A DNA stretch of 64,000 nucleotides from an uncultured Chloroflexia bacterium (GTDB lineage: Bacteria > Chloroflexota > Limnocylindria > Limnocylindrales > CSP1-4). The notes under the pieces were generated by a model that saw only the letters and a program-made list of their open reading frames with translations, was not told where the DNA came from and searched no databases. The stretch lies in NCBI GenBank assembly GCA_963735865.1, contig CAVTML010000002.1, positions 1,714,917 to 1,778,916 of the forward strand, written 5' to 3'. Shown here one piece after another: positions 32,498 through 46,421 of the stretch (the stretch's first letter is position 1; the number at the start of each line of letters is the position of its first letter). The translations under genes and the position numbers were made by a program.

Positions 32498-34978
32498 TCA
32501 CTTCGTGGGGACGACCTCTTGGGGCACCGGGCGACGTGGCGAGCGCTGCCTCGGCGAACCAGATCGCACGTGCCACGCCGGGGCGGGCGCCGGGCGGCCG
32601 AGCAGGTAGCCCTGGGCGAGGGGAACCCCGAGCTCGCGCAACGTCGCCAGTTCCTCCTCCGTCTCCACACCCTCGGCGATCGTCTGGCTCGCTGACGCGC
32701 TCGCGAAGTGCAGCAGCCCAAGCACCAGCGCCTGTCGCGTCCGATCCGCCTCGATGCCGCGCACGAACTGCAGGTCGAGCTTCACGAACGCCGGTCGAAG
32801 CTCGACGATGTGGCTGAAGTTCGCGACACCCGCCCCGGCGTCGTCCACCGCGATGCGCACCTCGGGGCGCAGCCGGCCGATCGCGGCGCGGAGGGCGACA
32901 TAGTCCTGCACGGCGGCGTGCTCCGTCACCTCGAGCACGACCGGCCGATCGGCCCGACGCAGCACGGCGGCGAGCCTTCGGTCGCCGGCCACGAGACCCG
33001 GTGAGACATTCAGGCTGAGCCAGGCGCCCGCCGGCAAGGCCGCGGACGCGGCGATGGCAGCGCCGAGTGTCGCCAGCTCAAGGTCAGCCTCCAGTCCGGC
33101 GACGCGCGCATCGGCGAAGACGAGATCCGGGGCCATGCCGTCGGAGAAGCGGGTCAGGGCCTCGTAGCCAGCCCGCACACCGCTCGCCAGGTCGACCACC
33201 GGCTGGAAGACGGGCTCGAAGGCCCCGGTCCGGATGATCTCGGTGATCCGCGCGTGGACGCTGCCCGCCTCGGTGAGATCGACGACGGCGGGGCCGACCA
33301 GCTCCCCGGCGAAGCCCGCGAACTCCAGCAGAGCAGGGAGCGACTCGGTGAGGTGCGCGACCGCGTCGGCGTCGGGTGACGTGGCCGTCAGAAGCCCGAT
33401 GAGCCTGCCGCCGTGGCGCACCGGCGCATAGGCCATGGCCTTGGTGCCCAGCTCCTGGTGGATCCGATCGTACGGGTGCCATGGCCGACGGGACCAGGCT
33501 TCGACCCACGGGCCCGCCTCCGATCGCTCGCGGAGGATCCGACTGCGCTGGAACGGCAGGTGCCGCAGCTTGACGGGTACGCCATCGGCCCGAAGAAACG
33601 CAAGCGGCAAGGCCGGGCCTTCCAAAGCGAAGTACACGAGGGACGCACTCGCGACCCCCGACAGACCCAGGACCTGCCGGCAGATCGCCTCCGCAGTGGC
33701 CGGCGCCGAGGCGAGGACCCGCAGGTCGGCGAGGGTTCCGGCGATCATCGCCCGCTCGCGCGTGGCGCGATCGTGGCTTACCTCGAGCGCGCGCTCCCGG
33801 GTCACGTCGCGCTTGACCGCCACGTAGCTCGTGATCACTCCCGTCTCGTCGTGGATGGGCGAGATGACGGCTTCCTCCTGGAAGAGACTGCCGTCCTTCC
33901 GCCGGTTGGTCAGGTCACCGACGAACGACTGCCCGTTCGTCAGGGCGGACCACATCGCGGTATAGAAACCGGGCCCCTGCACGCCGCTCTTGAGGATGCG
34001 CGGGTTCCTGCCAAGCACCTCGTCGGACGCATAACCCGTGACCCGCTCGAACGCCGGGTTCACGTACTCGATGGCGCCGGACTTGTCCGTGATCACGACC
34101 GCCTCCGCGGATTGCTCGATGGCGGTCACCAGGCGTCGTCGCTCGGTCTCGCCACGTGCCGCGGCCGCACGCGCGCGAAGGGTCATGACGCCGTTGGCGA
34201 GAGCCGAGGCGAGCTCCTCGAGGAGGGCGAGTTCATCGCCCTCGACGGAGCCAGGCTCCGCCGCGTAGATCACCAGTGTGCCGAAGACGCCATCCGCGAC
34301 CCTGAGCGGGAGCGCCACCACCGACCCGAACCCCCGCTCGAGCATCTCCTCACGCCACGTGAGCGTTTCCTCAGTCGCCACATCGGGGATGAGAACGATC
34401 CGCCCCTCACGGATGGACGTTCCAGCCGGCCCCAGGCTGCCATGTGCTACGTCGTTCCAGCTGAGGCCGATCTGACCGAGGTAGGACCCGAGTGGACCGG
34501 CCGCGGCGACCGGCCTGATCCTTCCCGATGGGTCATCCTCTCGATAGCCCACCCAGGCTCCCAGGAACGCGCCCTGCTCGGTGATGATGGAGCAGAACGC
34601 CTGGAGGAGGGCCCCCTCCTCAGAGCCGCGGATCAACGCCTGGTTCGCCGAGGCCAAGGTCCGCAGCACCTGGTTGAGCCGCGCGAGGTGCGCCTCAGCG
34701 CGTTCGAGTTCGGCGGTCTGCCGCTCGAGCTCGTGCGTCCGGCGGATCCGTTCAGAGCCGTATCGAGCCAGCAGACCGGCCAGAAGCACGCTCGTGACGA
34801 CGACGAACCCCCAGCCCTTGATCGTGGAGAGGGCCGCGAGGGCATCCTGACTCGGGGCGAATGCCTGTGCCACGCGATCGCTGAAGGCGATCCAGGTCGC
34901 CGCCACCACGGCGTACAGGAGCACGATGCCCCGGGCGGACAGGTGCAGACGCTGCTTCAGCTGGCGTGGCGTATGCAA
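32498..34978 (-). CDS. membrane-anchored GAF-PAS-GAF-EAL sensor protein (no GGDEF domain)
   Basis: ORF 32498..34978 (-). It has N-terminal TM helices, a coiled-coil and a GAF-like region. The PAS domain reads AIEQSAEAVVITDKSGAIEYVNPAFERVTGYASDEVLGRNPRILKSG. A second GAF-like region follows. EAL motifs: FQPVVDLASGVRAGYEALTRF, LSLNVSP, VLEVTEH, AVDDAGAG, VKLD, IAEGVETEEE, AQGY. Confidence 0.85.
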   Translation of the reverse strand: MHTPRQLKQRLHLSARGIVLLYAVVAATWIAFSDRVAQAFAPSQDALAALSTIKGWGFVVVTSVLLAGLLARYGSERIRRTHELERQTAELERAEAHLARLNQVLRTLASANQALIRGSEEGALLQAFCSIITEQGAFLGAWVGYREDDPSGRIRPVAAAGPLGSYLGQIGLSWNDVAHGSLGPAGTSIREGRIVLIPDVATEETLTWREEMLERGFGSVVALPLRVADGVFGTLVIYAAEPGSVEGDELALLEELASALANGVMTLRARAAAARGETERRRLVTAIEQSAEAVVITDKSGAIEYVNPAFERVTGYASDEVLGRNPRILKSGVQGPGFYTAMWSALTNGQSFVGDLTNRRKDGSLFQEEAVISPIHDETGVITSYVAVKRDVTRERALEVSHDRATRERAMIAGTLADLRVLASAPATAEAICRQVLGLSGVASASLVYFALEGPALPLAFLRADGVPVKLRHLPFQRSRILRERSEAGPWVEAWSRRPWHPYDRIHQELGTKAMAYAPVRHGGRLIGLLTATSPDADAVAHLTESLPALLEFAGFAGELVGPAVVDLTEAGSVHARITEIIRTGAFEPVFQPVVDLASGVRAGYEALTRFSDGMAPDLVFADARVAGLEADLELATLGAAIAASAALPAGAWLSLNVSPGLVAGDRRLAAVLRRADRPVVLEVTEHAAVQDYVALRAAIGRLRPEVRIAVDDAGAGVANFSHIVELRPAFVKLDLQFVRGIEADRTRQALVLGLLHFASASASQTIAEGVETEEELATLRELGVPLAQGYLLGRPAPAPAWHVRSGSPRQRSPRRPVPQEVVPTK

Positions 34979-37063: not shown

Positions 37064-37477
37064 CTACCTCGAGATCGGCCCCCGGGTCACACCGAGTGGC
37101 CGCATGCGGACGAACGTGGTGACCCCGTTGAGGCGCAGGATCAACCGGACCGGCATCGGCATGAGGCGCCGGTCAGGGTCCTCGAACACCTCCGGATCGA
37201 TCAGCTGCATGTCGTGACCCCGCGTCCGCATCTCGCAGCCGCCCGCAGCGAGGACGTTCTTCAGCCACTGCACATCGGATCCGTACGTGAGGGCGAAGAC
37301 ATACCAGCCGTCACGCTCGAAGACGTTGATCGGTATCGAATAGCGCCGACCGCTCTTCCGCCCCAGATAGGTGAGGATCGCGAAGCCAGGTAGCCGCCCG
37401 GCGAATGGCCGGGTCAGTCGGTTGATGACCTGGTTCGTGAAGGGTCGCAGGGATCGCAGCCGCGACTCACCGGCCAT
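37064..37477 (-). CDS. deazaflavin (F420)-dependent nitroreductase-family oxidoreductase (DUF385)
   Basis: ATG 37477 is in frame with ORF 37064..37855 (-) and is preceded by AAGGAGGAA. Motifs: NRLTRPFAGRLPGFAILTYLGRKSGRRYSIPINVFERDGWYVFALTYGSDVQWLKNVLAAGG. Confidence 0.75.
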   Translation of the reverse strand: MAGESRLRSLRPFTNQVINRLTRPFAGRLPGFAILTYLGRKSGRRYSIPINVFERDGWYVFALTYGSDVQWLKNVLAAGGCEMRTRGHDMQLIDPEVFEDPDRRLMPMPVRLILRLNGVTTFVRMRPLGVTRGPISR

Positions 37478-37631
37478 CGGTTCCTCCTTGATGTTGCGGG
37501 CGATCGGCGAAGGCCGTGTCAGCATGGACGGCTCCTGATATCTGCAGATGCGCGGGCGCCGCCGCTGTACGACGCCATGGGCGTCACGACGGAGATCATC
37601 GGGTGGGCACCGGGCCCGATACAATCCGGTC

Positions 37632-40600
37632 GTGCGACGGGCACTGGCGGTGCTGCTCTGCGCCACGGTGGTCGCCACGGCGTGTGGGACCAGCCTTCCA
37701 TCGACCACGCCTTCGACCCTGCCGAGCCCAACTCCCACTCCCACCACCTCGGGCCCGACGGCGCTCGACGCCTGCGACCCTGGCGGATACGTCGCCTGCA
37801 ACCAGCAGGCCGCCTTCATCTCGCTGCCGATCGCCGATACGGGGCTGTCACTCACCTGGTCCAGTCAGTGGGCGCCGGGGCGGACGGACCGGGCCGGGTG
37901 GGACGCCACGCCGCTGGGGCTGGGCGGCTGGTCCATCGACATGGTCCAGCGCTACCGGAGCGGCGACCAGGCGCTGGTCAGTGGCGACGGGTCCTGGCGC
38001 TTCGCCACGACCGTCAAACTCCCCGACGGCGGATTCGCCGTGCCCAGCTATGACGGCTCCCTGGCCTTCCTGTTCGACGCGTCCGGCCGCCACATCAAGA
38101 CCGTGGACGGCCACCTCGGGACCACGCTGCTCACGCTGACGTACGACTCGGCCGGCCGTCTGTCGACCATCAGCGGCACGTCGGCGGGGCAGCCGGCCCG
38201 TCTGGAAGTGCGACGCGCCGGGGACGGCACGCCGCAGGGGCTGGTGGGCCTCGACGGTGCGGTGACGACGCTGGGAGTGGATGTCGGCGGCAACCTGACC
38301 TCTATCACCGACCCGGCCGGGCACACCACGACCATCGCGTTGAACAAGGGCGGCCTGGTCACCAGCTGGACCGACGCGCTGGGCGGGGTGAGCCGCTTCA
38401 CCTACGACCAGGACGGACGGCTCGTGGCCGCCAGCGATGCCGACGGGGTGACGGCGCAGTTCACCCGATCCGCCACCGCGGGCTCGGTCGAAGTCAAGGT
38501 CACCACGGCGCTAGGACGGACGACCACCTACCGATCGGAGTCCGGCTCCGGTGGTATCACGCGTAGCGTCGTGGCAGCCGACGGCACGACCACGACCGAG
38601 GCGACGGCGGCCGATGGCTCGCGCTCGCTGAGCCTGCCGGACGGGACCACACGCACGATCGGTTTGACGGCCAGCTCGATCTGGGGCACGGCCGCGCCGC
38701 TGCTGACGCCGGACGTGACCAAGCGCCCGGACGGCGTCACGTCCACGACAGCGGTGAAGGCCGCTCTCACCGAGATCGGGGGCCTGCCCTACACCGTTAG
38801 CGGCACGGTGAGCACCACGGTGAACGGGGCAACGTCGATCGAGAGGTTCGACCCGGTCGCGCGGACGATGACGCTCGTCGACGGCGCGGGCCGCAGGACG
38901 GTGGACACGTACGATCCGGCCGGGCGCCTCGTGTCGGAGTCCGCCCCGGGTAGGGCGGCCACCACCTACGCGTATGACCAGCAGGGTCGTGAGACTGGCC
39001 AAACACTTGGAACGGGCTCCGCTGCACAGACCACGCGCTTCGGCTACGACCCCTCGACCGGGCAGATCACGGTGACCCGGGCGGACGGAAGCACCATCGC
39101 CATGAGTGTGGACGCGGACGGCAATGTGGCCACGACGGCCACAGCCGACGGCGCGACGGAGGTGCTTGCCTACGACGCCAGCGGGCGGCTGACCCGGGTC
39201 CAGCCGGCAGGAGGCCTGAGCTTCACCCAGGGATACAGTGCCGCCGGGCGCCCCACCGCCTTCCTGCCCCCATCGGTGCCTGAAGACGCCTCGGCAGAGG
39301 TGACCACCTACGACGCCGACGGCGCTGCCACATCGGTCAGCGGCCTCGGACTGTCCGATAGTCTCGCCTACGACAGCGAGGGGCGTCTGGTCGCTACGAC
39401 CAACGACGCCGGGAAGACGACTCGCTCATACGACCCGACCACCGGCCTTGAGAGCTCCTCGGCCGATCCTGGCGGCGTGTCCACGGTCTACGGGTACGCC
39501 GGCAGCCAGCTCACGTCACTGAGCTGGTCGGGCCCGCTCACCGGGTCTGTCTCGACCACGCTCGATCCCGGTGGCCGCGCCGTGACCCAGACGACTGACG
39601 GCGCCACACCGCTGGACCTGACCTACGACGCGGCCGGCAACCTGACTTCGGCCGGCGGGCTGAGCCTCAGTCGGGACGCGACGAGCGGCCTGGTCACGGC
39701 CAGCACCCTGGGTACCGTGGCCACTCAGCAGGAGTACGACGCGGCCGACCAGCTTGTGCGCTCCGTGACGACCGTGAGCGGCCGGTCGGTCATGGATCTC
39801 ACCTACACCCGTGACGTCCTCGGCCGCATCGTCAAGGTGGTGGAACGGTCAGCTGCCGGCACCACGACCACCAGCTATACCTTCGACGGATCCGACCGCT
39901 TGAGCGCGGTCCAGGTCAACGGCAAGACCGTGGAGACTGATACTTATGACGCGGCCGGGAACCGGCTGTCGACCACCGGGTCGGCCGGCGCGACCAAGGG
40001 CACGTACGACGCACGCGATCGGCTGGTGAGCTGGGGCGGCGCCACATACGCTTGGCTGCCGGACGGCGACCTGGCGACGATGAAGGGCCCGGCAGGCACG
40101 TCCACGTTCAGCTACGACACCGCAGGGAACCTGCGCTCGGTCACGCTGGCCGACGGCAGCTCGATCCGCTACATGGTCGATGCCGACGGCCGCCGCATCG
40201 GCCGAGAGGTCGGCGGGAGACTCACGGCTGGGTACTTGTATGACCCCTCGGGCCAGATCGTGGCCGCGACCGATGGGGCCGGCGCCGTGACCGAGCAGTT
40301 CGGCTACGACGACCAGGGGCATCTGGCCCTGGTCGAGAAGGGTGGCCGAACCTACCGCGTGGTCACCGATGCGGTCGGCAGTCCGCGGCTGCTCATCGAT
40401 TCGCAAAGCGGCGCTCTTGCCGATGCCATCACCTACGACGGCTGGGGCCAGGTGACCAGCGAAACCAGTCCGGGCTTCACCCCGTTCGGCTTCGCCGGCG
40501 GCCTGCTAGACCCCGACACCGGTCTGGTGCGCTTCGGCGCCCGCGACTACGACCCGACCACTGGCCGCTGGACGGCACCCGACCCGACCGGGTTCGACGG

Positions 40601-42668
40601 GGGGGACGCGAACCTGTACCGCTACGCCGGCGGCGACCCGGTCAACCGGACCGACCCGACAGGGTTGTGCATCGGGCCCGTCTTCTGGCTCCCGTGCGCC
40701 GGGTTCGCGCTCTGGAAGATCAGCCAGCCGTCGAATCCGTCGCCTCCCGAGTGGAAGCCGCCGGTCTGGTACTGCCATGGGATCGGCTGCGTACCGCCCG
40801 GCTCGAAGGGAGAACAATGGAATTCCTGTGCGGTCGCATTCGGCTCGTGCCAAGGATCCGGACCCGGCGGAACCTGGGACTGCAAAGGGATAGGCTGCCA
40901 CGGCCCATATGGCGCCGAGTGCTTAATAGCCTGGTGTGGATATGGCGATATCCATCTGGAGACCGGCGACCGTGCGCACGTAGACTTCCAAGCCGGGGGG
41001 GAGTTCCTGGCCGTAACGTCACCTGACCATGCCCTGCAGGTGCAGGCCAGACAGGAGGCCGTGTTGGGCGGGACGCTTGTCACGTTCAGCACTGCCGTGG
41101 CGGCCAGCGTCAACGGCGACCGCGTGGGCGTGTACGCCGACGAGCCGTCGTTCGTCATGGTCGACGGTAAGCCGGTCACGGCCGCCGACCTCGCCGAGCA
41201 ACTTCCCCATGGGGGCTCCCTGGAGCGCCATGGCGGGCTCGTGACCGTGACCTGGCCTGACCGCAGCCAGCTGACCATCAGTCGGATTGCGAATACCCTC
41301 GACTACTGGCTCGTCCCTAGTACGGCCATCGCCCCCACCCTCGGCGGCCTGCTGGGCAACGCCGACGGCAACCCGGCCAACGACCTGACCAGTCGTGACG
41401 GCACGGTCCTGAGCCTGACCGACCCCGACTTCCACACCAAGCTCTATGCGCAGTTCGGCGATAGCTGGCGGATCACCCAGGCGGAGTCGCTCTTCGACTA
41501 CTGGCCAGGAGAGAGCACGGCCACCTTCACGAAGCTCGACATCCCCTCCGCCGAGGTGACGGTGGGCACGCTCGACCCGGCCGCCCGGACGATGGCCCAG
41601 GGCGTCTGCAGCGCCGTCGGCGTGCGCACCGAGCCGCTGCTCGATGACTGCCTCATCGACGTGGCGATGACCGGGGACGCCTCGTTCGCCGCCGCCACCG
41701 CGGCGGTGGCCGCTGCCGGCGGCGCCCAGGCAACCACCAGCTCGGCGCCACCGGCGAGCGTGACCCCGATGACGATCGAGCAGTCGGAGTCCGCCACCAT
41801 CGCCTCCCCTACCCAGACCGATGACTACACCTTCACCGCTATCGCCGGCCAGGTCGTCTACCTCCAGACCCACGCCACCTGTACCGGATCGCTGGGCTGG
41901 CAGCTGCTCGGGCCCGACGGCGGCAGCCTGGCGGGCAGCCTGGTCTGCAACGACCTCCAACGCCAGGTGCTGGGGACCGAGGGCACCTACACGATCCGCG
42001 TCAACCCCGACCACTCCGCAACGGGCGACTACTCGTTCTCCCTGCTGGCCGTGCCGTCCACGGTCGTCACCCCCATCTCCATCGGCCAGACTGTGAGCGG
42101 CGCGGTGTCCCAGCCCGGCCAGTGGGCCGACTACACCCTGACGGCGAGTGCCGGGCAGATCGTCTACCTGAAGCAGGGCAGCACCTGCACCAACGGGCTG
42201 TGGTGGGAGCTGGTCGGTCCGGACGGCCGTGCCGCCGCATCGGCGGTCGCCTGCAACGACCTGCAGCGGCAGGTCCTCCAGGCGGGCACGAACACGATCC
42301 GCGTGTACGGCGACCACGCCACCGTCGGCGCGTTCTCGTTCACCGTGCTCGGCGTGCCCGCCACGCAGGCGTCACCCATCTCCATCGGCCAGACGGTCAG
42401 CGGCTCGTTGACCGCAGCGGGCCAGTGGGCGGAATACACCTTCAAAGCCACTGCAGGGGAGGCCGTCACCCTCCAGGCGAAGGGCGCCTGCGTCGACGGC
42501 CTCAGCTGGGCGCTCGTTCGCCCGGACGGTACGGTCCAAGCCTTCACTGTTGCGTGCCGCGACCTCGGGGCCCAGGTCCTCCAAACGGCAGGGACGTACA
42601 CCGTCCGTATCTACGGGGATCACACCTCCGTCGGTGCCTATCAGTTCACGCTCGGCGCAGGCAGCTGA
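37632..42668 (+). CDS. Rhs/YD-repeat shell protein with signal peptide and a non-toxin C-terminal extension (Cys-rich + VWD-like + 3x PPC-like)
   Basis: ORF 37548..42668; GTG 37632 gives the signal peptide VRRALAVLLCATVVATACGTS. There are many YD repeats (LTYDSAGRL, FTYDQDGRLV, TYDPAGRLV, YAYDQQGRE, FGYDPSTGQ, AYDASGRL, LAYDSEGRLV, ...). The RHS-associated core end is ARDYDPTTGRWTAPDPTGFDGGDANLYRYAGGDPVNRTDPTGL, ending at 40667. A further 666 aa follow. Confidence 0.9.
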   Translation: MRRALAVLLCATVVATACGTSLPSTTPSTLPSPTPTPTTSGPTALDACDPGGYVACNQQAAFISLPIADTGLSLTWSSQWAPGRTDRAGWDATPLGLGGWSIDMVQRYRSGDQALVSGDGSWRFATTVKLPDGGFAVPSYDGSLAFLFDASGRHIKTVDGHLGTTLLTLTYDSAGRLSTISGTSAGQPARLEVRRAGDGTPQGLVGLDGAVTTLGVDVGGNLTSITDPAGHTTTIALNKGGLVTSWTDALGGVSRFTYDQDGRLVAASDADGVTAQFTRSATAGSVEVKVTTALGRTTTYRSESGSGGITRSVVAADGTTTTEATAADGSRSLSLPDGTTRTIGLTASSIWGTAAPLLTPDVTKRPDGVTSTTAVKAALTEIGGLPYTVSGTVSTTVNGATSIERFDPVARTMTLVDGAGRRTVDTYDPAGRLVSESAPGRAATTYAYDQQGRETGQTLGTGSAAQTTRFGYDPSTGQITVTRADGSTIAMSVDADGNVATTATADGATEVLAYDASGRLTRVQPAGGLSFTQGYSAAGRPTAFLPPSVPEDASAEVTTYDADGAATSVSGLGLSDSLAYDSEGRLVATTNDAGKTTRSYDPTTGLESSSADPGGVSTVYGYAGSQLTSLSWSGPLTGSVSTTLDPGGRAVTQTTDGATPLDLTYDAAGNLTSAGGLSLSRDATSGLVTASTLGTVATQQEYDAADQLVRSVTTVSGRSVMDLTYTRDVLGRIVKVVERSAAGTTTTSYTFDGSDRLSAVQVNGKTVETDTYDAAGNRLSTTGSAGATKGTYDARDRLVSWGGATYAWLPDGDLATMKGPAGTSTFSYDTAGNLRSVTLADGSSIRYMVDADGRRIGREVGGRLTAGYLYDPSGQIVAATDGAGAVTEQFGYDDQGHLALVEKGGRTYRVVTDAVGSPRLLIDSQSGALADAITYDGWGQVTSETSPGFTPFGFAGGLLDPDTGLVRFGARDYDPTTGRWTAPDPTGFDGGDANLYRYAGGDPVNRTDPTGLCIGPVFWLPCAGFALWKISQPSNPSPPEWKPPVWYCHGIGCVPPGSKGEQWNSCAVAFGSCQGSGPGGTWDCKGIGCHGPYGAECLIAWCGYGDIHLETGDRAHVDFQAGGEFLAVTSPDHALQVQARQEAVLGGTLVTFSTAVAASVNGDRVGVYADEPSFVMVDGKPVTAADLAEQLPHGGSLERHGGLVTVTWPDRSQLTISRIANTLDYWLVPSTAIAPTLGGLLGNADGNPANDLTSRDGTVLSLTDPDFHTKLYAQFGDSWRITQAESLFDYWPGESTATFTKLDIPSAEVTVGTLDPAARTMAQGVCSAVGVRTEPLLDDCLIDVAMTGDASFAAATAAVAAAGGAQATTSSAPPASVTPMTIEQSESATIASPTQTDDYTFTAIAGQVVYLQTHATCTGSLGWQLLGPDGGSLAGSLVCNDLQRQVLGTEGTYTIRVNPDHSATGDYSFSLLAVPSTVVTPISIGQTVSGAVSQPGQWADYTLTASAGQIVYLKQGSTCTNGLWWELVGPDGRAAASAVACNDLQRQVLQAGTNTIRVYGDHATVGAFSFTVLGVPATQASPISIGQTVSGSLTAAGQWAEYTFKATAGEAVTLQAKGACVDGLSWALVRPDGTVQAFTVACRDLGAQVLQTAGTYTVRIYGDHTSVGAYQFTLGAGS
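41763..42665 (+). repeat. three tandem ~303-nt (101-aa) intragenic repeats encoding PPC-like beta-sandwich domains
   Basis: Units begin near 41763, 42066 and 42369. Each unit has the pattern P(I/M)(S/T)I(G/E)Q(T/S)...(G)QW A(D/E)YT(L/F)...AG..V.L....C..GL.W.L.GPDG......CNDL.RQVL..GT.TIRVYGDH...G.(Y/F)SF.L, with 2 Cys per unit. Confidence 0.8.
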
Positions 42669-42686: not shown

Positions 42687-43407
42687 CTACTCGGTAGGTG
42701 TGGCCTCAGGGGACGGCGCGTCGGTCGAGCCGCCGTCATCCTCGGCGAGCAGGCGGTAGAGGCCCCGACGGGTCTCCACGAGCAGCTTGCGGGCTTCCGC
42801 GGTCGTGGCCGGGCTGCCCACCTGGGAGAGCTGGAGGGTCGCGGCCATGACCTGGTGCAGCAGGTCACGCAGCTGGACGGCATCGGAGCCGCCACCGAAG
42901 GCCCATGGCGCGCCGGACCCGCCGGTCGAGGCGGTATCGGCGGCCGTGCGGCCTGTGTCGGTCAGCTCGAAGACCCGGCGGCCGTCCTTCTCGGAGGCAC
43001 GCACGAGGCCCTCGTCCTCCAGCTGCTGGAGCGTCGGGTAGACGCGAGCCGGCGCTGGGCCGCCAGCGGCCGTCGCTGCGGCGCTCGAGCTCGGAGATGA
43101 TCTGGTAGCCGTGCATCGGCTCCTCGGCCAGGAGGCCCAGGATCGCACTGCGCACGTCCCCACGGCGGGCCCGCAGGGCGCCGGGGAGCGGCATGCCGCG
43201 GAACCAGCCGCGGCCGGGTCCGAAGGGGTGTTGGCCGGCGTGGGCGCGGAGATGGGAGCGTGGGTCGGCGCCCGGTTCACCGCCGCGATGCGCCCGCGGG
43301 GGGCGATGCCAGTGACGAGGGTCCATGTCGTGGGGATGGGGATAGTTGTTGCGTGGATCGTCCACTTGATGCCTTTCGATCGGCGTGTGCTCGCGATCAC
43401 GACGCAT
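42687..43407 (-). pseudogene. PadR-family transcriptional regulator with a single-nucleotide frameshift
   Basis: The N-terminal part lies in ORF 42865..43407 (-): ...RRGDVRSAILGLLAEEPMHGYQIISELERRSDGRWRPSAGS. The continuation lies in ORF 42687..43400 (-): VYPTLQQLEDEGLVRASEKDGRRVFELTDTG.... The two frames join if nt 43044 is skipped. Confidence 0.75.
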
Positions 43408-46013: not shown

Positions 46014-46421
46014 CTACGGCAGGACGCTGAAGCGCCCGCCCGACACCGGACGGACCACATCGAAGTGCCGGCGATCGAGGGTCGCGATGCTCCGCGTCGC
46101 GTACCGGCTGGCGAGGACGACGTTGGATGCGTCGGCGACGCCCAGGCGCTGGTCGGCGTAGCGCTGGATCACCGCGCGCGCCGCCATCACGTCCTTGGCC
46201 CCGAACGCAGGCAGGTCCCAGGCTCCACCCGCGAGTTCCTGCAGGACACGGAGCTCGAGCGCCACGCCGAGCCGCGACGCGACGAGGTGATCGAGCTCGG
46301 CGACGACGAATGGCGAGACGACGAGCGGCTCGGTCGCCGCATCGAGGACGCTCGAGACCGCCACATGGTCCGGCTCGTCCGTGTCGAAGTACGCCAGGAG
46401 CGCACTCGTGTCAACGATCAC
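46014..46421 (-). CDS. vapC: PIN-domain toxin (VapC type)
   Basis: ORF 46014..46421 (-); GTG start overlapping the antitoxin stop (GTGA). Motifs: IVDTSALLAYFDTDEP...SPFVVAELDHL...VADASNVVLA...IATLDRRHF. Confidence 0.85.
   Translation of the reverse strand: MIVDTSALLAYFDTDEPDHVAVSSVLDAATEPLVVSPFVVAELDHLVASRLGVALELRVLQELAGGAWDLPAFGAKDVMAARAVIQRYADQRLGVADASNVVLASRYATRSIATLDRRHFDVVRPVSGGRFSVLP

Follow-up and report, generated by a model that had tools for sequence, protein, structure and literature searches.

On the forward strand of contig CAVTML010000002.1 (NCBI GenBank assembly GCA_963735865.1, an uncultured Chloroflexia bacterium), a gene at positions 37632-42668 of the 64,000-nucleotide stretch analysed here, hereafter the window, encodes a protein in which a YD-repeat shell and an RHS-associated core are followed by a tail of 666 amino acids (aa). 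In this tail, a linker leads to a VWD-C8 D assembly, after which come three PPC-like beta-sandwiches. With somewhat more confidence than doubt, we assign the gene to a large clade, not described before, of teneurin-like YD-shell proteins that lack NHL, are anchored as lipoproteins and carry a conserved extracellular binding module, and we do not read it as a polymorphic toxin. Most likely, the protein would serve in adhesion or ligand binding while anchored at the surface, and its tail would be exposed on the outside of the shell. The open reading frame (ORF) is uninterrupted from a GTG start at 37632 to a stop codon at 42666-42668 (stop-to-stop frame 37539-42668) and specifies 1678 aa; this intact frame, together with the domain calls given below, confirms the ORF and the architecture that a preliminary description of the window had proposed.

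Conservation of the tail across the family

Searching with the shell part of the protein (aa 1-1103) returned 1,814 relatives, the best ~110 of which are proteins of 1,450-1,920 aa from metagenome-assembled genomes (MAGs) of Limnocylindrales/Chloroflexota, Dormibacterota, Acidimicrobiales, Pseudonocardiales, Nakamurella, Acidobacteriota and others. The end of the core was mapped in these relatives by phmmer, as a regular expression for the cleavage motif missed about 40% of the sequences. Tails of 450-880 aa are found in essentially all complete members of the family. In the more distant, NHL-bearing relatives that this search also returned, the tails have an ordinary length of 72-149 aa. All tails of at least 400 aa among the nearest shell relatives (92/92) are homologous to the tail of the window protein, comprising the VWD-C8 block and one to four copies of the repeat. 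Furthermore, across 84 full-length members the identity of the shell correlates with that of the VWD block (r = 0.83), and hypervariability within the family is confined to the stretch between the core and the VWD domain. The tail is a conserved, co-inherited part of the protein, the opposite of a polymorphic cargo, and an all-against-all BLAST of the tails ruled out the polymorphic-cargo hypothesis. The preliminary description had hedged between an adhesin or receptor-type Rhs and a new class of Rhs cargo. Because the tail is not polymorphic but conserved, and diverges in step with the shell, the sequence comparison supports this hedged reading and favours its first alternative.

A cognate immunity gene was not found in any of the five gene-annotated loci (the window, L003, L004, L006 and L007), none of which has a same-strand, adjacent ORF downstream; in the window, neither the ORF list nor Pfam places such an ORF at the expected position 3' of the gene. 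At these five loci the gene is not accompanied by a toxin domain or a secretion-system gene either, and on the long contigs of L003, L004, L006 and L007 it stands alone, without a conserved neighbour.

A chimeric misassembly, or a sequencing error fusing two genes, near 40.67 kb could in principle create such an ORF, and the preliminary description had named this junction as the place to look. An independent Chloroflexia MAG (L001) is colinear across it at 88% DNA identity, the 84 full-length homologues come from several phyla and share the same order of parts, and the GC content of third codon positions (GC3) is uniform along the ORF at 0.87, in a window with 71.5% GC. No direct support for an artefact was found; it can only be said that some relatives are frameshift-fragmented (P0001 in L005), so that such assemblies do contain errors. 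For practical purposes, the artefact is refuted and the ORF is not chimeric. P0001 itself, which has 666 aa and starts with MNQVDPTGL, was considered as an orphan tail cassette and rejected, since L005 contains a 495-aa YD fragment upstream of it and many tiny gene calls, as expected for a full-length gene broken by frameshifts. Similarly, the orthologue in L001 has been called as a protein of 1,471-1,487 aa, yet DNA homologous to the N-terminal 190 codons of the window gene lies upstream (L001 6947-7529). This short gene call is likely a frameshift or assembly error in the MAG.

Fold and relatives of the tail

The VWD hallmarks mentioned in the preliminary description are borne out at several levels. 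Pfam VWD (PF00094) matches aa 1104-1258 with 28.9-30.1 bits against a gathering score of 22.9, and a profile built from the family tails has its best PDB match in FCGBP (2e-61), followed by VWF and mucins; in support of the C8-like module, profile positions 456-517 match VWF 976-1028. An AF2 model of the tail, based on 41 homologues, reached a predicted local distance difference test score (pLDDT) of 82. Its first 87 residues are disordered (pLDDT <50), a beta-rich domain and then helices occupy residues 89-350, and residues 365-664 fold into three beta-sandwiches with pLDDT mostly >90. In a Foldseek search against the PDB, ~280 columns of this model align to the VWD-C8 parts of MUC2, VWF, MUC5AC, MUC5B and FCGBP (probability 1.00, E 2e-11 to 1e-9), an alignment that runs beyond the VWD domain itself. 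TIL and E modules and an eight-cysteine C8 were not found by Pfam or cysteine count, the C8-like part having two Cys. At the start of the VWD domain (aa ~1099-1102), a GD-x-H-type motif is present; of 93 relatives, 33 have GDTH, 26 GEPH and 24 GDPH, and the window protein has GDIH. In the VWD domains of mucins and FCGBP, GDPH is an acid-labile motif at which autocatalytic cleavage takes place, and by analogy the family members that have it may self-cleave a second time.

The three repeats are 40-56% identical among themselves and hold one Cys pair each. Foldseek matches them to the tandem collagen-binding domains (CBDs) of ColG (5iku, E 3e-8) and also to CUB-type sandwiches. With a profile of the repeats, collagenase collagen-binding domains and protease PPC domains are the best solved matches, at marginal E-values (0.02-0.09 for the collagenase CBDs). 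PPC was detected at E <=1e-3 in 6/41 tails and 4/20 repeats of relatives. Of the three PPC-like domains read earlier, the three tandem beta-sandwiches hold, as seen in the AF2 model and the ColG match; PPC proper is reached by some relatives, and the Pfam PPC score of the window protein stays below the cut-off. Cysteines are even in number and paired per domain, a pattern that fits oxidative extracellular folding. In agreement with the earlier reading that the tail lacks toxin motifs, no toxin family was found by Pfam and NCBIfam in the whole protein, the tail, the 91-aa post-core segment or the repeats; the tail gave just VWD and a weak PPC match.

The VWD-C8 block occurs well beyond this family. 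A comparison with 1.84 billion representative proteins returned 4,207 relatives at E <=1e-3, 879 of them at E <=1e-30; some may be eukaryotic, as the library carries no taxonomy. An RHS core lies upstream of the block in 25 of the top 150 relatives, and the remainder pair it with WSC, DUF4215, Fibrinogen_C, DS-like, thrombospondin C-terminal (TSP_C), OmpA, SBBP, Peptidase_M91 or PPC domains. Giant proteins of 2,500-7,100 aa contain 2-13 copies. Apart from Peptidase_M91, a metallopeptidase of the effector type, these partners are those expected of a module that binds outside the cell.

The shell and its N-terminal region

Pfam recognises RHS_repeat (PF05593) in 11 stretches (E 2e-47) as well as TEN_YD-shell (PF25023), giving a shell of about 880 aa, close to the roughly 900 aa of YD repeats estimated before. 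So what kind of shell is it? In a phmmer search of the PDB, the bacterial teneurin-like protein BiTLP (9pt5, 9ifo) ranks first (E 1e-91); the alignment pairs window aa 135-1012 with BiTLP 1266-2144. Teneurin-4, -2 and -3 follow at E 5e-51 to 1e-41, the Rhs proteins of type VI secretion systems (T6SS) from 8e-39, and TcC at ~1e-5. Foldseek with an AF2 model of aa 45-1110 (pLDDT 85, predicted TM-score 0.83) gives query TM-scores (TMq) of 0.77 for BiTLP (E 1e-70), 0.66-0.76 for teneurins, 0.41-0.55 for T6SS Rhs and at most 0.45 for TcB-TcC. Both sequence and model thus indicate a teneurin-type shell that is closer to BiTLP and animal teneurins than to T6SS Rhs or TcC, and the resemblance to eukaryotic teneurins noted in the preliminary description extends to the nearest solved relatives. 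The mature shell holds just two Cys.

The same description had seen a signal peptide of the plain Sec type. A signal peptide is indeed present, but it ends in a lipobox (VVATAC, followed by GTS; VVATAC|GTS), which lies at the equivalent position in most complete family members, where it precedes a P/S/T-rich tether and then an invariant module. Because this lipobox is conserved across the family, the protein is a predicted lipoprotein processed by signal peptidase II (SPII), beyond mere Sec secretion. The N-terminal module follows the pattern 'ECDPxGYVxC...LTYSSQWA...GLGGWS' throughout the family. A profile of this region gives a weak match (14 bits, domain E 0.23) between its positions 47-87 and BiTLP 885-925, where the FN-plug ends, and this match spans ~40 residues of the ~90-aa module; its positions 89-188 correspond to BiTLP 1263-1359, where the shell begins. 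From BiTLP 925 the alignment leaps to 1263, over the NHL propeller, and Pfam finds no NHL or TEN_NHL match in the protein. Since the profile alignment skips the propeller, the protein is best described as an NHL-less teneurin-like protein.

Tail size in relation to the shell cavity

If the tail is conserved and folded, where would it reside? In the BiTLP study (PDB 9ifo, 9pt5; Raoelijaona et al., Nat Commun 2026), the C-terminal domains (CTDs) of teneurin-like proteins (TLPs) average ~15 kDa, are polymorphic toxins, and are enclosed in a shell without an opening (PMC13018210). The cavity volume, ~44,000 Å3 in BiTLP, limits the size of bacterial CTDs, and a C-terminus led out via an opening is described in metazoan teneurins only (PMC13018210). 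At 1.21 Å3/Da, the whole tail of the window protein (68.9 kDa) requires at least 83,000 Å3, and its confidently folded part (59.8 kDa) ~72,000 Å3. Because the shells of the window protein and BiTLP are co-linear and the tail has about twice the volume of the BiTLP cavity, we infer by homology that the tail cannot be encapsulated, as the preliminary description had already supposed from its length.

These numbers also bear on the possibility that the protein is a canonical polymorphic Rhs toxin, with the VWD-PPC tail itself being a new and very large toxin cargo. The position of the tail directly after the DPxGL motif and the intact RHS core are what such a toxin would show. Its cargo would, however, be about twice the cavity volume, is not polymorphic, consists of adhesion-type folds with paired Cys, and comes without an immunity gene. 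We therefore disfavour this explanation as very improbable.

The predicted autoprotease and the hypervariable linker

NCBIfam TIGR03696 matches the core at aa 935-1012 with 76 bits against a cut-off of 32.5, and the match ends with the DPTGL motif at aa 1012, or nt 40667, exactly where the preliminary description had placed the terminus of the core. The two catalytic Asp are kept in 84/84 full-length members, and R971, D984, D1008 and G1011 are invariant in an alignment of 63 sequences. Within the DPxGL motif, Pro is kept in 59/84 and Leu in 71/84 members. This relaxation was not used as a sign of lost cleavage, as distant NHL-bearing TLP-like matches vary alike at these positions. Autoproteolysis is predicted to take place between L1012 and C1013. 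Because the Arg and both Asp are invariant, cleavage is probably retained and likely occurs after L1012, its chemistry being assigned after BiTLP and TcC (PMC13018210). In the AF2 model of the shell, the last 24 residues of the core (aa 989-1012) have a pLDDT <50 despite their high conservation, with the rest of the shell above 85-90; gaps in the alignment near the linker, or a C-terminal plug segment that is mobile, may be the reason.

A functional protease would open the way to a different reading, in which the lipoprotein shell and its protease form a self-cleaving device that holds the VWD-C8-PPC module and then releases it as a soluble or matrix-forming factor, for instance a multimerising one, instead of keeping it as a cell-attached adhesin. 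The invariance of R971, D984 and D1008 across the family agrees with this, as does the lack of a conserved Cys or other obvious retention feature after the cleavage site. Moreover, the D assemblies of VWF and mucins, the best fold matches of the tail, are oligomerisation modules, and GDPH or GEPH motifs occur in 50/93 relatives. On the other hand, a closed 100-kDa shell makes for a costly cleavable anchor, and the tight co-divergence of shell and tail (r = 0.83) suggests that the two continue to function jointly. The window protein, having GDIH and a single Cys pair in its C8-like module, would furthermore lack the disulfide machinery of multimerising mucins. We regard release as unlikely, if still worth keeping in view beside the cell-attached adhesin that we prefer.

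Between core and VWD domain, the linker of the window protein has a short hydrophobic stretch (CIGPVFWLPCAGFALWKI), which is followed by a Pro-rich one and then by CxGxxC mini-repeats. Ten Cys are indeed found between aa 1013 and 1102, matching the ten-Cys segment reported before; the folded domain implied by that report does not stand, as this region is a disordered, hypervariable linker by its pLDDT of <50 and by comparison with the linkers of the family. Those measure 50-259 aa (median 109), are rich in Gly (21%), Pro (14%) and Cys (6%), and often consist of tandem low-complexity repeats. The ten longest, read by eye and not scanned separately for domains, are Gly/Ala/Pro low-complexity sequence or tandem repeats. 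A transmembrane (TM)-like, strongly hydrophobic 17-mer directly follows the cleavage site in 13/93 members. The hydrophobic stretch of the window linker spans ~17 aa with a Kyte-Doolittle (KD) value of 1.34.

Even between close orthologues the linker changes. In the syntenic locus of L001, whose protein is 87% identical, the flanks have 88-91% DNA identity, and 40745-40943 is unalignable. In this Cys-rich part (aa ~1038-1104), the window protein is, at the protein level, closer to the linker of the more distant P0048 than to those of its nearest relatives P0047 and P0050. The pattern suggests local mosaic exchange or very fast evolution. Diversification of the linker resembling that by diversity-generating retroelements (DGR-like) was considered and dropped, no template-like repeat being present in the window. 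In a subset of relatives (P0093, P0095, P0104, P0105, P0154 and P0096), the first ~130 aa after DxxGL form a conserved Gly-rich segment ('GLNLQYIQG...NPS..DW.G...CLTC') that precedes the low-complexity linker and is absent from the window protein. In these P0093-type members it could be a small encapsulated domain.

The properties of the linker raise the question whether the shell encapsulates a small cargo after all. The first part of the tail, as a hydrophobic, Gly-rich or Cys-rich peptide, would then be a toxin, and VWD-PPC the receptor-binding domain that brings this membrane-active peptide to its target cells, by analogy with the CTD of BiTLP. That CTD has 92 aa and is a small, hydrophobic peptide that disrupts and permeabilises membranes (PMC13018210). 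The hypervariable region occupies the exact position of Rhs toxins and evolves fastest, even between the 87% identical orthologues, and both the TM-like 17-mer of 13/93 members and the conserved Gly-rich ~130-aa segment of the subset would suit such a cargo. Most linkers, however, are Pro/Gly/Ala low-complexity sequence or tandem repeats without a hydrophobic segment, and the stretch of the window protein is only ~17 aa long, with a KD of 1.34. No Pfam family was found in its 91-aa post-core segment. Almost all TLPs have an immunity gene downstream (PMC13018210), yet nothing like it was found in the five gene-annotated loci. A targeted toxin of this kind is distinctly improbable in our view.

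Discussion

Our favoured reading, a lipoprotein-anchored YD shell with an adhesion or ligand-binding module outside, can be put into the following steps. Going by its sequence, the SPII signal would export the protein and lead to lipidation of Cys18, after which the P/T-rich tether would keep the closed ~100-kDa YD shell, a fold predicted with high confidence, at the cell surface. The aspartyl protease of the RHS core (R971, D984, D1008) probably cuts after L1012, as its invariant residues suggest. The chain may then exit the shell as a flexible, disulfide-rich, fast-evolving linker, in keeping with its size, disorder and composition. Finally, this linker would present the 60-kDa module of VWD-C8 and three PPC-like sandwiches outside, where it could bind a ligand or self-associate and thereby mediate adhesion, a role suggested by the function of these folds in other proteins and by the domains with which this VWD block is combined. 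An adhesive function of VWD in bacteria has been put forward before (PMC12419801). The shell would act as a scaffold or anchor, as it does in animal teneurins, and not as a toxin capsule.

Several observations weigh against this reading. The Pfam PPC match of the window protein scores 15.9 bits, below the cut-off of 25.9, and the AF2 models have pLDDT <50 for the last 24 residues of the core and for the entire linker, through which the chain would leave the shell. The residues following the cleavage site are hydrophobic in the window protein, and strongly so in 13/93 members, which recalls the membrane-active CTD of BiTLP. Lastly, the invariant Arg/Asp/Asp imply cleavage, which would detach the adhesin from its anchor unless some interaction retains the tail.

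How does the protein relate to known systems? Like the TLPs, it has a teneurin-type YD shell that aligns end to end and an RHS core with the catalytic Arg and two Asp, and its N-terminal module is weakly similar to the end of the FN-plug. As in Gram-negative TLPs, export is predicted to go by Sec/SPII with anchoring as a lipoprotein, and no dedicated secretion machine is apparent. It differs from them in lacking the NHL propeller (BiTLP ~926-1262 has no counterpart), the N-terminal TIP or BIG adhesion domains and a downstream immunity gene, and in its CTD, which is conserved and measures 69 kDa instead of being polymorphic, encapsulated and ~15 kDa in size. In addition, the clade consists mainly of MAGs from Chloroflexota (Limnocylindrales), Dormibacterota, Actinomycetota and Acidobacteriota, and Chloroflexota and Dormibacterota are not among the six phyla in which TLPs were described (PMC13018210).

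With the metazoan teneurins (Ten1-4, Ten-m), the protein shares membrane anchoring, a YD shell (TMq 0.66-0.76) followed by C-terminal domains that are not, or cannot be, inside it, and a proposed adhesive role. Teneurins span the membrane in type II orientation and contain EGF, TTR, FN-plug and NHL domains, whereas the window protein is a predicted lipoprotein without NHL that carries VWD-C8 and PPC-like domains. Their external C-terminus has been solved, and that of the window protein is deduced from volume. The RHS motif is absent from mammalian teneurins (PMC13018210), unlike in the window protein, where the protease residues are invariant. Classical Rhs, WapA and TcC proteins have YD repeats, the RHS-associated core and the PxxxxDPxGL motif with its Asp dyad in common with it, but not the PAAR, VgrG or LXG domains, TcB partner, polymorphic toxin or immunity gene. 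Pfam and NCBIfam indeed found no PAAR, VgrG, LXG or TcA/TcB trafficking features in the protein, nor did Pfam in the neighbouring genes, which bears out the absence of PAAR, VgrG and LXG domains noted in the preliminary description. Because none of the three defining features that were tested was found, the protein stands functionally outside the polymorphic-toxin systems. Without NHL it also falls outside the definition of TLPs, and it is not a teneurin.

The tail in turn resembles the D assemblies of VWF, gel-forming mucins and FCGBP in its Pfam VWD match, the profile match to FCGBP (2e-61) and the ~280 columns that include the helical C8 region. It departs from them in the absence of TIL/E modules, in two instead of eight Cys in the C8-like part, in GDIH instead of the autocatalytic GDPH, and in its bacterial context. 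The same block, at 30-40% identity, is found in the myxobacterial Zincin-SAA-vWD-Ig protein and other bacterial VWD proteins from Micromonospora, Amycolatopsis, Myxococcus and Corallococcus, in which the N-terminal domains are a peptidase (M91/Zincin), SBBP or others and a YD shell is absent. With the CBDs of ColG (s3a-s3b) and the PPC/CBD of ColH (s3), the repeats share the tandem beta-sandwich fold (Foldseek E 3e-8), and these are their best PDB matches by sequence profile; the similarity is marginal at the sequence level (E 0.02-0.8), and each repeat of the window protein has a conserved Cys pair that sets it apart.

In the lipocone paper (PMC12419801, eLife 2025), the sole mention that our literature search turned up, the myxobacterial Zincin-SAA-vWD protein, for which adhesion to prey was proposed, is called 'the first bacterial example' of vWD. 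With 4,207 representative clusters, the distribution of bacterial VWD-C8 would be far wider than the literature recognised in 2025. No paper combining Rhs and VWD was found in our search of the literature, and Lang et al. 2016 concerns FCGBP_N in bacteria, not VWD. Animal-type VWD-C8 assemblies seem to be common building blocks of bacterial surface proteins, which bears on the origin of the D domains of mucins and VWF.

A further proposal, which we make tentatively and believe in rather less than we doubt, is that this clade forms a bacterial precedent for the teneurin topology, in which a closed YD shell serves as surface scaffold and a large adhesion module is threaded outside. If true, the switch from toxin capsule to adhesion receptor would be no metazoan invention and would also have happened in soil bacteria, independently or earlier, using an animal-type VWD-C8 D assembly. 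With a teneurin-type shell, no immunity gene and a conserved adhesion-fold module that has about double the volume of the cavity, the clade would break, within bacteria, the size rule of PMC13018210. How a toxin capsule became an adhesion receptor is left open by that study, and the clade could serve as a bacterial model for the transition. It would also be a tractable system to address whether and how the chain exits a YD shell, and what role a shell has that is not a capsule. For annotation, the family is a warning that an 'RHS repeat-associated core domain-containing protein' is not always a toxin.

Feature coordinates and gene neighbourhood

Table 1. Features of the YD-shell gene and its flanking genes, in window coordinates.
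Feature	Position	Strand	Basis or remark
Lipoprotein signal peptide, aa 1-18 (VRRALAVLLCATVVATAC), lipobox Cys18	37632..37685	+	Predicted from sequence; lipobox at same place in most complete family members
Pro/Thr/Ser-rich tether, aa 19-44	37686..37763	+	Read from sequence; similar P/S/T tethers in homologues
Conserved N-terminal plug-like module, aa 45-134, invariant Cys pair C48/C56	37764..38033	+	Alignment columns; AF2 pLDDT 85-94
Teneurin-type YD-repeat shell, aa 135-934	38034..40433	+	Pfam RHS_repeat and TEN_YD-shell; PDB phmmer; Foldseek TMq 0.77 to 9ifo
RHS-associated core, aa 935-1012, with R971, D984, D1008 and DPTGL	40434..40667	+	NCBIfam Rhs_assc_core TIGR03696
Hypervariable linker, aa 1013-1099 (87 aa)	40668..40928	+	pLDDT <50 in both AF2 models; predicted disordered
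VWD domain, aa 1100-1258, beginning GDIH instead of GDPH	40929..41405	+	Pfam PF00094; PDB profile matches; Foldseek
Helical C8-like module, aa 1259-1362, single Cys pair C1326/C1340	41406..41717	+	AF2 helices with pLDDT >85
PPC-like beta-sandwich repeat 1, aa 1375-1476	41754..42059	+	AF2; Foldseek to ColG s3a-s3b (5iku); repeat profile against collagenase CBDs E 0.02
PPC-like beta-sandwich repeat 2, aa 1477-1577	42060..42362	+	AF2; Foldseek; repeat identity; repeat profile
PPC-like beta-sandwich repeat 3, aa 1578-1678 and stop codon	42363..42668	+	AF2; Foldseek; repeat identity; repeat profile
F420H2-quinone-reductase-like gene	37064..37478	-	Pfam; divergent, upstream; sets 5' limit of transcription unit
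PadR-like gene	42687..43400	-	Convergent, downstream; starts 19 bp past the stop codon of the YD-shell gene

The window contains no paralogue of the shell protein, and Pfam found no T6SS, type VII secretion system, PAAR or VgrG genes among its neighbours. Scans for promoter and terminator consensus sequences and against Rfam returned no matches. The reductase-like gene upstream starts at an ATG at 37478 that is preceded by AAGGAGG, both read on the minus strand. Further genes nearby encode, according to Pfam, GAF-PAS-EAL, esterase, ABM, glyoxalase, RibD_C, PIN and DinB proteins.

The organisation of the locus differs in one distant member, P0082. Upstream of it (L006 1-6004) lie genes for DUF8403 and DUF8402 proteins and a CarboxypepD_reg-OmpA protein with overlapping stop and start codons, so that the family gene seems to be the last of an operon, an arrangement unseen in the window and the other loci. 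The GAF-PAS-EAL protein of the window (826 aa, 32498-34978, minus strand) is of the cyclic-di-GMP phosphodiesterase type and is encoded ~2.6 kb upstream of the YD-shell gene, on the opposite strand; in L004, a GAF-GGDEF-EAL gene likewise lies within a few kb of a family member. The PIN-domain protein at 46014-46421 (minus strand, Pfam E 1e-12) is probably the toxin of a VapBC-type toxin-antitoxin pair.

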